IMG/VR virus record: IMGVR_UViG_3300033068_000713
Coordinates: 1 to 64,000 of that record
DNA from: a virus
Taxonomy: Duplodnaviria > Caudoviricetes
Reading direction: 5' to 3' (one strand)
Length of the DNA stretch: 64,000 bases
The position numbers and the translations under genes were made by a program. The notes beneath the pieces are model-generated. The model saw nothing but the letters and a program-made list of their open reading frames with translations. It was not told the DNA's origin and did no database searches. This document shows positions 37,319 through 54,655 of the stretch, in pieces; the stretch's first letter is position 1; the number at the start of each line of letters is the position of its first letter.

Positions 37319-37444
37319 TGAGAAGGCAGGGCTTGATACCTGCTCAGCGGTTCTCCCAATGCTGACCAAAACTGATTGTCCCTGTATTTCCGAAAATCTA
37401 TTCGGCAGTCAATCAAGCTCGGGCTTCCATCAGCCTGCTTCTCA
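37319..37444 (-). ncRNA. tRNA-mimic RNA B (UGAG family)
   Basis: TGAGAAG/CTTCTCA, GGCT-GATGGA-AGCC, extended central arm, long variable arm, GCAGG-TATCAAGC-CCTGC. Confidence 0.7.
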
Positions 37445-37631
37445 AATTGTGTTGTCTTATCGGAAGAATCACTCCAGCCCGTGGTCAGGTCGCTCACTTT
37501 CGCAATGAGTTGAGGCTGAGTTGCACCTCCCTCTAAGCTCATATTGCTACCCCTTGCGCTACGCCAAAATAACGAAGTGCCCTCACTGCACGAACTGGTT
37601 TGAATCTTCCTTTTGCTGAGAAAGACTGAGT

Positions 37632-37785
37632 TGAGCGGGCGAGATTGGTTACTCGCATTTGCTAGGCAGAGTCGCTAAACCTAACTCCTACATTACGGTT
37701 CTACCCCGTACCGGCCTTGAAACCACCATGCGACAGGTAGCCATACTCCGGGTTCGGATGCACGTTCTGTCCGTGCTGCCGCTCA
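37632..37785 (-). ncRNA. tRNA-mimic RNA A (UGAG family)
   Basis: TGAGCGG/CCGCTCA, GCACG/CGTGC, four further hairpins, GCGAG-TAACCAAT-CTCGC. Confidence 0.7.
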
Positions 37786-37926
37786 TTTCAATCTTCCTCT
37801 CCCAACTCTCGCTTGGGACTCCAAGTCAGCATACGGAGCATTACCGCTGGTGCTTTGGTTCGGACCGCAAATGAGGCGGACTATGTATTTAGTTTACAGA
37901 TGAGGACGGTTTTGGCAAGAGGGAAA

Positions 37927-38094
37927 TTAAGGTTTAGCCCAGATTGTCCGGTTTTGCTCAACCTTCTGAATGAGGCCAGCTTTGATCGCCTCCTGTGAAA
38001 CCATTGCCTCTGTCCAGTTGTAGACCGAAATCACCACCGCTCCTGCAATTAGAATTGTCGCCGCCGCAATTACCCATGCTTTTACTTCGTCCAT
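37927..38094 (-). CDS. Small single-TM membrane protein
   Basis: Hand-translated MDEVKAWVIAAATILIAGAVVISVYNW.. 55 aa. Confidence 0.65.
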   Translation of the reverse strand: MDEVKAWVIAAATILIAGAVVISVYNWTEAMVSQEAIKAGLIQKVEQNRTIWAKP

Positions 38095-38106
38095 AATTTT
38101 GGTTGG

Positions 38107-38622
38107 TTAAAACTTTTTCCCGTTCGCTTCTTTCCTCGCCTCGTGAGTATGGTCTTTCCTGGATTTGTTGTATTCCAGCTTGGATTCTACTGCGCCCCAG
38201 AGGTCGTAGCCGTGCTTTGAGCAATATTTCTCGATCATAGAGATACATGGCTCAATCCAATGGTATGAGGCCCCTCCATTGGCACATATTTGACGCATGA
38301 TCTCATAAATACCCTCCGCTTTATTTTCAGGAAAGTCCCGAGCTGGAGGTCGATATTCATCAATATCAATATTAAAACCACCAGCGTAATCCAAAATCCT
38401 AATGCAACAATCGCCCATTTCCACTTCCGCCATCCGGCGATCTGGCAAATGATCGTCCATCAAGTCTTTACGCTCGCCTTCCAGGGCCTCGGATAACTCA
38501 CTGATTACCAAGGCTAGCAACTCTCCCTTATTGCGCTTGATCGGAAGACCTGTCTCAAGGTCTGTCCACCATTTGACGTTGGCGGCTTTTACGCGGTCGC
38601 GGAGTTCGTTCAGGTTTTTCAT
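38107..38622 (-). CDS. MazG-like nucleotide pyrophosphohydrolase
   Basis: LLALVISELSEALEG..EVEMGDCCIRILDYAG..KLEYNKSR. Confidence 0.85.
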   Translation of the reverse strand: MKNLNELRDRVKAANVKWWTDLETGLPIKRNKGELLALVISELSEALEGERKDLMDDHLPDRRMAEVEMGDCCIRILDYAGGFNIDIDEYRPPARDFPENKAEGIYEIMRQICANGGASYHWIEPCISMIEKYCSKHGYDLWGAVESKLEYNKSRKDHTHEARKEANGKKF

Positions 38623-38625
38623 GGT

Positions 38626-38979
38626 TTACTTCTTCAGTTTTTCCTTTAGCGACTCAACTGCCGCATTGTAAATTTCTGGCAAGTCCTGCTGGATAGCCTT
38701 ACTCTCCGCGATCTTGGGGATGACGACCATCATGGCGATGGTATTTGAAGATGGCACAAGCGTGTTAATTGCTGAGAAAAAAATCAGAAATGGTATGCCT
38801 ATTTTGGCTATTTTCTTTCCAGCCCTAAGTGCCTTCGGTTCATTTTCACAATGTCCGAATAACATCATAAATCCGCTCGCTGCAACTATGATTAGGGTAA
38901 CGAAGACAGATGCTCCTGATGCGGATATAGCCCTATCCGCCAGTTGCCAGAGATAAATAGTTAACGCGTTGATTTCCAT
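38626..38979 (-). CDS. Membrane protein
   Basis: Two hydrophobic segments, PSSNTIAMMVVIP. Confidence 0.7.
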   Translation of the reverse strand: MEINALTIYLWQLADRAISASGASVFVTLIIVAASGFMMLFGHCENEPKALRAGKKIAKIGIPFLIFFSAINTLVPSSNTIAMMVVIPKIAESKAIQQDLPEIYNAAVESLKEKLKK

Positions 38980-38983
38980 GTTT

Positions 38984-52720: not shown

Positions 52721-52978
52721 TCATACAAACGGCTTAAATTCAGCAGCGGTTTTATTTGCCTTAGTGTTGTTGCACATAAAGCAGCAGGGAACCAAATTTG
52801 ACATAGCGTTTGATCCCCCTCTTGATTTTGGCGTGAGGTGATCCACGGTCATTTCTGATTTGTTGAGCGGAACTTTACAATAATGGCAAAGCACAAACTC
52901 TAAATCAACGGATTGCAGCGCCACCTTGTTGCGGTTCCAGACTTTCTTTCTGGTTACTCCCCATTTGCCTTTACTCAT
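52721..52978 (-). CDS. HNH endonuclease
   Basis: CHYC..TVDHLTPKSRGGSN..NLVPCCFMCNNTK. Confidence 0.9.
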   Translation of the reverse strand: MSKGKWGVTRKKVWNRNKVALQSVDLEFVLCHYCKVPLNKSEMTVDHLTPKSRGGSNAMSNLVPCCFMCNNTKANKTAAEFKPFV

Positions 52979-53192
52979 TTTCCATCGCCTCCTCAAATTC
53001 AGTGCAGGTTTCAGCGGCTCCGGCTAGGAGTCGAGTTGAATTTAGGCTATCATACCGTTGCCACTCTCCTTGATTCACTCGCCACCAATGGGTGAAAGAG
53101 TTGGTATGCATTCCGTCCCGGCGCTTTCCGGGTGGGCAGCAGCATCCGCTGGATTCGATTTCGATTGTACCGTCTGGTTTCTCGTATTTCAT
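52971..53192 (-). CDS. Hypothetical protein
   Basis: GGAGG upstream, ATGA-coupled. Confidence 0.5.
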   Translation of the reverse strand: MKYEKPDGTIEIESSGCCCPPGKRRDGMHTNSFTHWWRVNQGEWQRYDSLNSTRLLAGAAETCTEFEEAMENE

Positions 53193-53533
53193 TTCGCCTC
53201 CTTTTCTCTTGGGAGCATCATCATTTGCTCCTCCCAAGCGTAGGCCATCGAAGAAAGAGGAGTGTCGAGAGCCTTGCAAATCTTGAGCAAATTTTCCAGC
53301 GTAGGGTTGGCTTTGATGTTTGATTCTATCCGACTTAAAAGACCAACTGAAACTCCCGACTTGTCTGCCAGCTCGTGCAGCGTCCAACCTTTTCTTTCCC
53401 GATCTGATTGAATGACGCCGCCAATCCAACCTGGAATCGGCTCTCGTTTGCATCGTGCCATTTTCTTGAGGCGTTCCACTTCCGCTTTGGCCTCTTCCAA
53501 TTTTCCTTTAATGGTAGTGCTCTTGAATAACAT
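53189..53533 (-). CDS. XRE-family HTH regulator with N-terminal coiled coil
   Basis: RERKGWTLHELADKSGVSVGLLSRIES..NPTLENLLKICKAL. Confidence 0.88.
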   Translation of the reverse strand: MLFKSTTIKGKLEEAKAEVERLKKMARCKREPIPGWIGGVIQSDRERKGWTLHELADKSGVSVGLLSRIESNIKANPTLENLLKICKALDTPLSSMAYAWEEQMMMLPREKEAK

Positions 53534-53547
53534 GAAATGATCTATAT

Positions 53548-53877
53548 CTAAAACGGTTTACCCCGCAAGCGTATTTTTCGTTTCCGTCTTCGTTCTTTCT
53601 TAATCCTATCGTGCTCTTTGCGGTGGCATTTCTCGCATAGAACCTGGAGATCGGAAAGGGTGACATTGAAAATGCTGCGGTATTTGAGGTGATGGCATTG
53701 TAGCTTTTTAGAGGTTCCGCAATCAGCGCATTTTCTGCCGACCGATTCCAGCTTTTGAGCGCGAAGGGTTTTCCAGTGTAGCGAGAACAGGTACACCTCC
53801 CGATACCAGCGACGCTTGCTTTTGCCGTAGGCTTTGATTTCGGCTTGGAGGCGGTTCTTGGCTTCTGGAGAGGTCAT
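53548..53877 (-). CDS. HNH-type nuclease
   Basis: HWKTLR..CADCG..LQCHHLKY..LQVLCEKCH. Confidence 0.8.
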   Translation of the reverse strand: MTSPEAKNRLQAEIKAYGKSKRRWYREVYLFSLHWKTLRAQKLESVGRKCADCGTSKKLQCHHLKYRSIFNVTLSDLQVLCEKCHRKEHDRIKKERRRKRKIRLRGKPF

Positions 53878-53895
53878 GCTTTATACTGACAAAGG

Positions 53896-54165
53896 CTATG
53901 CTAGGTACAAAGATGATGGATTCCAGAAATCCACATGTTTTCCGGGAGGCTCATCATAAATGCCCACCATCCATCCGTGAGGGAATTTCTCTAATCTTGC
54001 GACTTCGTAGGAAAATTCAGACTCGGGATTGATCTTAACCTTGTCGCCGGGTCGAAATCCGATTCTTCGGTACCGAAGCTCTAGGGCGACCTCTCTAATT
54101 TCCTGGGGTTCCATTTCTAGCTCTTTCGCTAGGATTTCTAGTTTTGTGGGCTGTTCTGCGTTCAT
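53896..54165 (-). CDS. Hypothetical protein
   Basis: FRPGDKV; 89 aa. Confidence 0.65.
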   Translation of the reverse strand: MNAEQPTKLEILAKELEMEPQEIREVALELRYRRIGFRPGDKVKINPESEFSYEVARLEKFPHGWMVGIYDEPPGKHVDFWNPSSLYLA

Positions 54166-54184
54166 AATCTAAGGTTCAATTCAA

Positions 54185-54655
54185 GAAGGCTTGAGGGAGA
54201 TGAGCGGACATAGGAGTCCCATTTCTGGGACACTCATGTAAAGTCACAATTAATTCCGTCAGGAATCGGTCGCTTCGCTACATCCAACTTTCGTTGGCCC
54301 TGTCCCGCGACGGAAGCTCATGCTGGCGCAGTTTGGAATAACAGGTCGAGTCCAGTGCCTCAAGGACACTAGAGCAATATTAAGGCCTCTGTTCTCCTTG
54401 GTCGGAGGCCCCCGTTTGCAAGAGACCTGTATTGAGCGGGCAGGTTGTCATCCTGCTACTGACTAGGCAATCGCGTGCGGAATTGCACCGCCATTCAGGC
54501 TTTCCCCGTTTTTTCGACGATCCGCTCAATACAAATCTCTCACTACTGATCTTCCCACTTCTCGACCGGGAATATGGCCTGCCGTTGTCCTGTCACAGAG
54601 TTTCGGTCAGTAACCTCGTCCAGATCAACACATCTGGCCTATGTCAGATGGTAAA
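54185..54655 (-). ncRNA. ORF-free hairpin-rich region, putative large ncRNA
   Basis: CCAAC-GAAA-GTTGG, GTCCCA-GAAA-TGGGAC, TTCCGTC/GACGGAA, GGCCTC/GAGGCC, CATCTG/CAGATG. Confidence 0.5.
54421..54540 (-). ncRNA. tRNA-mimic RNA E (UGAG family) on a 19-bp stem
   Basis: AGAGATTTGTATTGAGCGG/CCGCTCAATACAGGTCTCT; GCAGG-ATGACAA-CCTGC; internal GCGG-TGCAATT-CCGC. Confidence 0.68.

Follow-up and report, generated by a model that had tools for sequence, protein, structure and literature searches.

Are three related RNA structures encoded by an uncultured phage mimics of transfer RNA (tRNA), or do they belong to another kind of structured RNA? The question arises from the first 64 kilobases (kb) of a 73.5-kb IMG/VR record, IMGVR_UViG_3300033068_000713 (Duplodnaviria; Caudoviricetes; here G000); these 64,000 nucleotides (nt) are referred to throughout as the window. 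An initial annotation, made from the letters alone, had pointed to three elements, A, B, and E, each drawn as a 7-base-pair (bp) stem stacked on a 5-bp hairpin, and had read them as tRNA-mimic scaffold RNAs cut out of polycistronic transcripts. That observation was largely right but incomplete, and its interpretation is partly supported. The three elements belong to a family of structured non-coding RNA cassettes in which a closing helix, usually much longer than 7 bp, surrounds an interchangeable interior, or cargo. On balance, we lean toward the view that A, B, and E are small RNAs freed by RNase III-type cleavage of this helix, and that their cargo is loosely derived from tRNA. The three cassettes are as follows.

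37618..37799, minus strand: cassette A (core in the initial annotation 37632-37785; 154-nt core)
37318..37445, minus strand: cassette B (core in the initial annotation 37319-37444; 126-nt core)
54418..54543, minus strand: cassette E (core in the initial annotation 54433-54528)

All three are present on the minus strand where they had been placed, with the stems that had been described. The closing stems are UGAGCGG/CCGCUCA in A and E and UGAGAAG/CUUCUCA in B, and the 3′ hairpins are GCGAG/CUCGC in A and GCAGG/CCUGC in B and E. The 7-bp stem had been taken for an acceptor end; in A and E, it is instead the inner part of a longer helix. The closing helix of E has 22 bp, G-U pairs included, and that of A consists of 12 bp (GAGGAAGAUUGA/UCAGUCUUUCUC), a 2x2 internal loop (AA/AC), and the 7 bp UGAGCGG/CCGCUCA. 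The closing stem of B has 8 bp (UUGAGAAG/CUUCUCAA) and is followed by CA and a 5′ hairpin (GGCU-GAUGGA-AGCC), then by two long arms and the 3′ hairpin (GCAGG-UAUCAAGC-CCUGC). The cargo of A forms five hairpins, the last of which (GCGAG-UAACCAAU-CUCGC) abuts the helix. The cargo of E is made up of a P2 stem (AUCGU/GCGAU), a middle, T-loop-like hairpin (GCGG-UGCAAUU-CCGC), the linker UGCCUAGUCAGUA, and a 3′ hairpin (GCAGG-AUGACAA-CCUGC).

How well do these structures hold up when folded? Cassette A has a minimum free energy (MFE) of −74.2 kcal/mol and a z-score of −4.73, with 0 of 200 shuffled sequences equally stable, and the z-score of E is −5.71. Both z-scores gain strength when the extended helices are included in the fold. 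In A and E, the MFE fold contains the 7-bp stem and its 5-bp hairpin, all at pair probabilities of 0.97 or higher. For the hairpin of B, the probability is only 0.01. The closing stem of B can extend because a second GCAGG sits directly after its 5′ strand, and the alternative fold with the extended stem is better than the cloverleaf-like fold by 1.3 kcal/mol, which is within the error of the energy model.

The 7+5 geometry had been read as the minihelix geometry of tRNA and tmRNA (transfer-messenger RNA). A search of the whole genome, on the two strands, for a mismatch-free 7-bp stem with a mismatch-free 5-bp hairpin (loop of 7–8 nt) directly next to its 3′ strand gave four cases (A, B, E, and one within a large open reading frame [ORF]), compared with 4.6 ± 3.3 in 60 first-order shuffles of the genome. 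Since the shape occurs at chance frequency, the signal lies in shared sequence and not in shape alone. Indeed, A and E have in common UGAGCGG, UGCCUAG, and CCGCUCAA, and UGCCUAG stands exactly 23 nt before CCGCUCA in both. B has UUGAG.../...CUCAA in common with A and E, and GCAGG/CCUGC in common with E. By our rough estimate, the chance expectation of either sequence coincidence in G000 is of the order of 1e-6. The compensatory differences that had been reported among A, B, and E are real, and within the window they are limited to two pairs in the stem, P1, and two in the hairpin.

A further comparison comes from homologues, which were found in only two other phage contigs: L082 (the same as G002; L083 is identical in sequence) and G001. 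The E-type element of L082 is 84% identical to E over 74 nt, and ten pairs are changed on both sides between the two; these include pairs in each internal hairpin as well as seven in the outer helix. This element occupies an intergenic gap of 137 nt: a gene (family unassigned) ends 12 nt before it, and a MazG-type pyrophosphatase gene starts 20 nt after it. The MazG proteins of G000 and L082 are ~67% identical, and nothing else is common to both phages; that MazG is alike while the rest is unrelated hints at joint transfer of MazG and the cassette. G001 is the only detectable relative of G000, a 70.8-kb record with direct terminal repeats and a primase-helicase that is 50% identical. It carries two cassettes, G1_E2 and G1_D2, with a terminator-like hairpin upstream and an uncharacterized gene downstream.

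6144-6494 of L082, plus strand: MazG-type pyrophosphatase gene, downstream of the E-type element
31293-31646 of G001 (= L109:11293-11646), minus strand: two-cassette array of G1_E2 and G1_D2, in a position that is not syntenic with the array of G000

The helix of G1_E2 has 20 bp and the same end as A and E (UUGAGCGG/CCGCUCAA); its 5-bp hairpin is replaced by a 6–7 bp stem with a 20-nt loop. A covariance model built from E and the L082 element alone finds G1_E2 (27.9 bits, E-value 1.6e-4). The same model scores under 3 bits on A and B and detects neither, and it aligns its own middle hairpin to the T arms of T1 and T2, two tRNA-like elements that lie downstream of B. G1_D2 resembles B: its 18-bp helix is of the GGAAGAUU type, it shares both terminal hairpins with B (GGC-GUGGAA-GCC and GCAGG-N8-CCUGC), and it contains an internal T-arm-like hairpin (GGCG-UUUCGAAU-UGCC). 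There is no conservation between the loops of the orthologous 3′ hairpins, AGUAGCGA in G1_D2 and UAUCAAGC in B. Two possible pseudoknots were noticed. In one, seen in E and L082, GUCA would pair with UGAC in the loop of the hairpin; in the other, seen in A, UAGGU would pair with GCCUA. We do not claim them because there is no covariation with which to test them.

What has been maintained in the closing helix? In an alignment of A, E, the L082 element, and G1_E2, the 21-bp closing helix is 97.6% paired, and at nine of its pairs both partners have changed. Shuffling the columns 500 times never gave as good a result, and sliding the partner strand gave at most 48.7% pairing and at most three doubly changed pairs. 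Thus, the covariation that the initial annotation had proposed to look for in homologues is found in the closing helix. The two parts of this helix behave differently: the inner 8 bp (UUGAGCGG/CCGCUCAA) do not vary among the four members, the cargos of which cannot otherwise be aligned; the outer part covaries. Counted in rungs, the helix measures 22 in E, 21 in L082, 20 in G1_E2, 12 + 2x2 + 7 in A, and 18 in G1_D2, and it measures ~22 in C, a further cassette that lies between A and B. Overall, 18–22 rungs are seen in six of eight domains, the others being B (8 bp) and domain X of the same array (~14 bp).

The strand on which these RNAs are encoded is also clear. The cassettes lie in ORF-free islands within leftward operons, and E is flanked by co-oriented genes. 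For A, C, E, and G1_E2, both G-U pairs and folding energies favor the strand on which the flanking genes lie; for B, L082, and G1_D2, they are neutral. For example, sense and antisense folding energies are −74.2 and −56.5 for A, −55.0 and −45.2 for C, and −57.1 and −46.9 for E. The earlier view of a family of structured non-coding RNAs, encoded on the strand of the flanking genes in ORF-free islands, is therefore borne out, and their excision from polycistronic transcripts is plausible.

What else does the island of A and B contain? This island is a 1.4-kb gene-free gap between a MazG-type gene (stop at 38107) and the next gene (start at 36704). Folding gives a series of back-to-back closed domains in the order A, C, B, T1, X, T2, followed by more hairpins, and the z-scores of the closed domains folded from the islands range from −3 to −7. 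The single ORF that overlaps C, B, and T1 has zero homologues in 5.8 billion proteins.

38107-38622, minus strand: MazG-type pyrophosphatase gene, 320 nt upstream of A
37891..37918, minus strand: promoter-like site TTGCCA-16-TAAACT (9 of 12 matches), upstream of cassette A
37462..37610, minus strand: cassette C, a 149-nt stem-closed domain missed by the initial annotation (z-score −3.13, 0 of 200 shuffles)
37233..37309, minus strand: T1, a tRNA-like gene with an encoded CCA (Rfam tRNA 22.9 bits, threshold 29; fold z-score −3.28)
37147..37231, minus strand: domain X, a stem-closed three-way junction (z-score −4.78, 0 of 200 shuffles)
37072..37137, minus strand: T2, a shrunken 66-nt tRNA-like element (Rfam tRNA 19.2 bits, E-value 0.68, below the 29-bit threshold)

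The closing helix of C consists of 6 bp, a 1x1 mismatch, 3 bp, a 2x2 loop, and 10 bp. It starts with GGAAGAUUCA-AA, which resembles the outer strand of A, GGAAGAUUGA-AA, and, judged by sequence, it is a paralogue of the outer helix of A. The helix of C lies 16 nt upstream of B, and the 3′ end of B lies 9 nt before the 5′ end of T1. The T arm of T1, GGUUCGAAUCC (GUAGG-UUCGAAU-CCUAC), is perfect, its D arm contains GG, and a single A is bulged out of its acceptor stem. The anticodon arm of T1 folds either as a 7-bp stem with a GACG tetraloop or as 5 bp with an 8-nt loop, UAGACGUA; because of the 7-bp stem with its tetraloop, T1 would be unable to decode normally. ARAGORN misses T1 by default and reports it only at a lowered threshold, as “tRNA-Stop(tta).” T1 may itself be a tRNA mimic. 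Domain X begins 4 nt past the CCA of T1 and is closed by 9 bp, a bulge, and 5 bp. In T2, a D arm is present along with a T arm (ACGG-UUCGAUU-CCGU), but the anticodon position holds no more than a 4-bp stem with a 5-nt loop. The acceptor strands of T1 and T2 have the sequence GCGA.../...GUCGCC in common. As for the promoter-like site upstream of A, it is weak evidence only; the count of such sites in the region equals the expectation from shuffles.

How might these RNAs be made, and what might they do? From the structures we infer cleavage, release, and any function, as follows. The island would be transcribed within one long RNA. RNase III of the host would cut the closing helices, which are about two turns long, and RNase P together with 3′ trimming would free the tRNA-like units. 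Each cassette would then be released as a stable small RNA that keeps a terminal helix of ~10 bp. B, with its 8-bp helix, could be freed by its surroundings, namely the helix of C upstream and an RNase P cut at the 5′ end of T1 downstream; the shortness of its helix is probably explained by the CCA-ending tRNA-like RNA that follows as the next gene. The cargo would most likely act in trans as a protein-binding small RNA, a decoy role being one possibility. Its tRNA-like traits would be the hairpin stacked at each end of the closing helix and the internal T-loop-like hairpins. The cleaving enzyme would have to come from the host since no RNase III gene was found in the phages, nor was a gene for a CCA-adding enzyme.

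RNase III makes its full contacts over ~22 bp, and 11 bp is the minimal distance from the cleavage site (PMC1540722). Near-continuous double-stranded RNA of about the length of an RNase III site (~20–22 bp) is present in E, L082, G1_E2, A, C, and G1_D2; B and X are short. A helix formed by the cassette’s own flanks, with a covarying outer half, an occasional symmetric internal loop, and 18–22 rungs, has the form of a bacterial RNase III substrate. Together with the tRNA-like signals, these helices suggest that the array reads as a small-RNA operon punctuated by them. Several points weigh against this reading. The length rule is taken from PMC1540722 and may not be that of the host enzyme. The covariation comes from few sequences (three phage lineages, with six or seven cassettes), and the 21-bp helix is not universal, given the 8 bp of B and the ~14 bp of X. 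The perfectly conserved inner 8 bp are not explained by RNase III alone; their invariance suggests that something contacts them in a sequence-specific manner or that they have a role once the RNA is released. Finally, the L082 element stands alone between two genes, which fits a cis-acting processing or stability site equally well.

Could the cassettes be true tRNA mimics, as first proposed? They would then consist of an acceptor/T-arm minihelix, trimmed by RNase P and by RNase Z or exonucleases to ends at U1 and A73, perhaps with CCA added, and would serve as decoys or scaffolds for tRNA-binding proteins such as anticodon nucleases. We regard this as rather unlikely, even though five of the six members keep the stacked 7(8)+5 geometry and show compensatory changes in it, the stem of A, B, and G1_E2 is followed by CA, and a 4-bp D-like hairpin with GG in its loop is present in B and its homologue G1_D2. 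Internal T-loop-like hairpins in E, L082, and G1_D2 and the tRNA-like genes that adjoin the elements point the same way, and rnaC of phage T4 shows that such RNAs exist. However, that geometry is no more frequent than chance, and the helix runs 12–14 bp past the 7-bp stem in A, E, L082, and G1_E2. With leader and trailer paired over at least 12 further bp in A and E, there is neither a single-stranded leader nor a free 3′ end, unlike the substrates of RNase P and RNase Z; ends at U1 and A73 are thus unlikely for A and E. An A residue does follow each stem, as had been noted, but in B and E this supposed discriminator is paired with the U that precedes U1. CCA is encoded in none of the three, and U1 is unusual. 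The T-like loop fares no better: the 3′ hairpin loops are AUGACAA (E and L082), UAACCAAU (A), UAUCAAGC (B), and AGUAGCGA (G1_D2), and only that of B has U at position 1 and A at position 5 (the U54...A58 signature), which leaves four of five members without it. Moreover, the loops differ between the orthologues B and G1_D2, G1_E2 lacks the 5-bp hairpin, and no anticodon-like loops are available as bait for a nuclease. Models of known families agree with this. Rfam finds no tRNA, tmRNA, Y RNA, GOLLD, or ROOL in A, B, or E even at an E-value of ≤10, and across both islands, E, L082, and the G001 array, searched at gathering thresholds and at E ≤ 10, the only matches to cassettes are those of generic long-hairpin (microRNA precursor) models to the stem. 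ARAGORN reports nothing at A, B, or E by default, with introns allowed, or at lowered thresholds, where it gives noise and T1 only. It makes no tmRNA call, and in the Rfam searches the only tmRNA match is noise, at 12.2 bits to permuted tmRNA at 37150-37260 (E-value 8.2). For GOLLD and ROOL, a whole-window Rfam search at gathering thresholds returns tRNA-Pro only, and neither family turns up when the two islands are searched by E-value; for a retron msr-msd, no RVT_1 domain was found in the phage genome. The initial annotation could not assign A, B, and E to a named family, and none is found here beyond generic long-hairpin models on the stem of E. The cargos may well derive from tRNA genes. 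It is quite unlikely, in our judgment, that they are trans-acting, tRNA-derived scaffolds that have no anticodon, are released by RNase III, use a sequence-specific closing helix, and titrate a host tRNA-binding factor (e.g., a tRNA-targeting defense nuclease or a tRNA-modifying or processing enzyme), with T1 as part of the same countermeasure.

Two other explanations would require no trans-acting RNA or no RNA function. The helices could be cis-acting punctuation of the operon. They would then serve as RNase III sites or as stability elements, either uncoupling the expression of the flanking genes or adjusting it, comparable to the early sites of phage T7, and the cargo would have no function in trans. 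The place of the L082 element in an intergenic gap before MazG, the position of E between co-oriented genes, and a helix length that fits RNase III all agree with this. It is nevertheless unlikely: the cargos of E and L082 are ~85% identical and have covarying internal hairpins while the outer helix has diverged, which argues for selection on the cargo, and the stack of A, C, B, T1, X, and T2 in a 1.4-kb gene-free island is far more RNA than punctuation needs. It is very unlikely, in turn, that the cassettes are selfish or decaying DNA. They would then be miniature mobile elements that carry inverted-repeat ends and move between phages, or the eroding, now functionless remains of a former tRNA cluster. 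An E-type element is found in two phages that otherwise share only MazG, the arrays of G000 and G001 are not syntenic, T1 and T2 resemble degenerate tRNAs, and the family is very rare. Yet the outer arms vary in sequence and stay paired, the opposite of terminal repeats recognized by a transposase; G-U pairs give the structure strand specificity; no target-site duplication is seen around E; and covariation of the internal hairpins argues for a maintained RNA structure. Release of small RNAs by RNase III-type cleavage remains the reading that we prefer.

How does the family compare with known RNAs? Extra stable RNAs of unknown function in phage tRNA clusters have been known for fifty years, such as species 1 and 2 of T4. 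The genes for these two RNAs, rnaC (species 1, 139 nt) and rnaD (species 2, 119 nt), lie at the distal end of the tRNA cluster (AF158101, 70908-71171) and are the nearest published analogues. The likeness is one of genomic arrangement: non-coding RNAs of similar size (154 nt for A and 126 nt for B) lie beside tRNA or tRNA-like genes. The fold of rnaC is also similar: a stem closes it, a hairpin stacks on the 3′ strand of that stem, and there are additional long arms. As a stable RNA encoded beside phage tRNAs, rnaC is thereby a precedent for the reading preferred here. Neither T4 RNA has a family model. However, rnaC has a canonical T arm (CCGGG-UUCGAAU-CCCGG), which the 3′ hairpins of A, B, and E do not, and the T4 RNAs have neither the covarying closing helix of ~21 bp nor the constant UUGAG/CUCAA that are present here. 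There is no sequence similarity to the T4 RNAs, and the tRNA-like neighbors of the cassettes are non-decoding. To our knowledge, the function of rnaC and rnaD is still unknown.

RNase III helices, such as those of the early sites of phage T7 (e.g., R1.1) and the leader-trailer stalks of ribosomal RNA operons, are alike in that a helix of about two turns is formed from the flanks of the released RNA, and in that some members have internal loops, as do A and C (2x2). They differ in that generic sites do not require the invariant junction-proximal 8 bp of the four cassettes, and in that the RNA enclosed here is a small cargo and not a ribosomal or messenger RNA, its cleavage being proposed from the helix. 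With tRNA (RF00005) and the tRNA-like domain of tmRNA, the cassettes share a stem of 7–8 bp that is coaxial with a G-C-closed 5-bp hairpin, a two-nucleotide linker followed by a D-like hairpin (A and B), and T-loop-like internal hairpins (E, L082, and G1_D2). In contrast to those RNAs, they have no model match, anticodon arm, free acceptor end, or CCA, and most of their 3′ hairpins lack the T-loop signature. YrlA-type Y RNAs combine a long terminal stem, bound by Rsr/Ro, with a tRNA-like module, and phage-encoded examples exist. They too have 5′ and 3′ ends that pair in a long helix closing a branched domain with a T-loop-like hairpin. However, no TROVE/Ro gene was found in the phage, whose genome alone was searched for it, there is no Rfam Y RNA match, and the order of the arms is not the permuted-tRNA layout.

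Why does such a family matter? Its design is modular: the junction helix is constant, the outer helix covaries, and the cargo is interchangeable. It is found next to non-decoding tRNA-like genes. It may be described as a family of phage small stable RNAs that would be processed from tRNA-type operons; it is supported by covariation and has no entry in Rfam. If the helices are RNase III sites, the array would be a compact route to several small RNAs from one transcript, and the cargos would be candidates for RNA-based manipulation of the host. At present, the value of the family is that of a well-defined candidate for experiment.

The family is very rare, comprising six or seven cassettes in three phage lineages among the collections searched. 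Neither island has a blastn match among GenBank phages. In pattern scans of IMG/VR viral contigs, the only real matches were L082 and L083, the A-type pattern had none, and the core pattern gave chance matches in coding sequence. All 13 matches in a pattern scan of JGI metagenomes were judged to be due to chance, and a pattern scan of 185,579 species genomes gave none. The closest relatives of MazG in a large protein collection, five contigs of which were looked up, are not accompanied by cassettes, and relatives of the primase-helicase were found in G001 alone among viruses and in no bacterial genome. The closing-helix model detected no further member in 300 kb of related sequence. These searches required exact motifs or covered limited related DNA, so that members which have diverged could have escaped them. 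No paper on such cassettes turned up in a literature search. A separate observation made with the closing-helix model is a 12-bp hairpin at 55315-55378 (minus strand), GCCUAGAGUGGG/CCCGCUCUAGGC, which carries UGCCUAG and CCGCUC and scores 14.1 bits (E-value 0.55); it may be a chance match or a degenerate relative.

Most proteins of G000 have no family in PHROG or Pfam, and those that could be named include a primase-helicase, RecT, the MazG-type pyrophosphatase, an HNH endonuclease, and an exonuclease. A protein search gave no viral relative for the gene that follows the A/B array downstream. By default ARAGORN and Rfam’s own thresholds, the sole RNA gene of the window is tRNA-Pro(UGG), at 55109-55183 on the plus strand.

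The surroundings of E contain further structured sequence. ORF-free, strongly structured stretches on the minus strand flank it on both sides (54544-54657 and 54166-54417), with a GGCCUC/GAGGCC hairpin and GAAA-capped hairpins. A hammerhead candidate near 54600 was dropped, as it has no Rfam hammerhead match at an E-value of ≤10. A small HNH endonuclease gene (53548-53877, minus strand) lies two genes downstream of E; a link between the two could not be shown. On the other side of E, at 54870-54905 on the minus strand, a hairpin followed by CUUUUUGUUUUU resembles an intrinsic terminator. It closes a short leftward unit that starts in the divergent region beside tRNA-Pro, and a small gene (start near 54857) comes directly after it.

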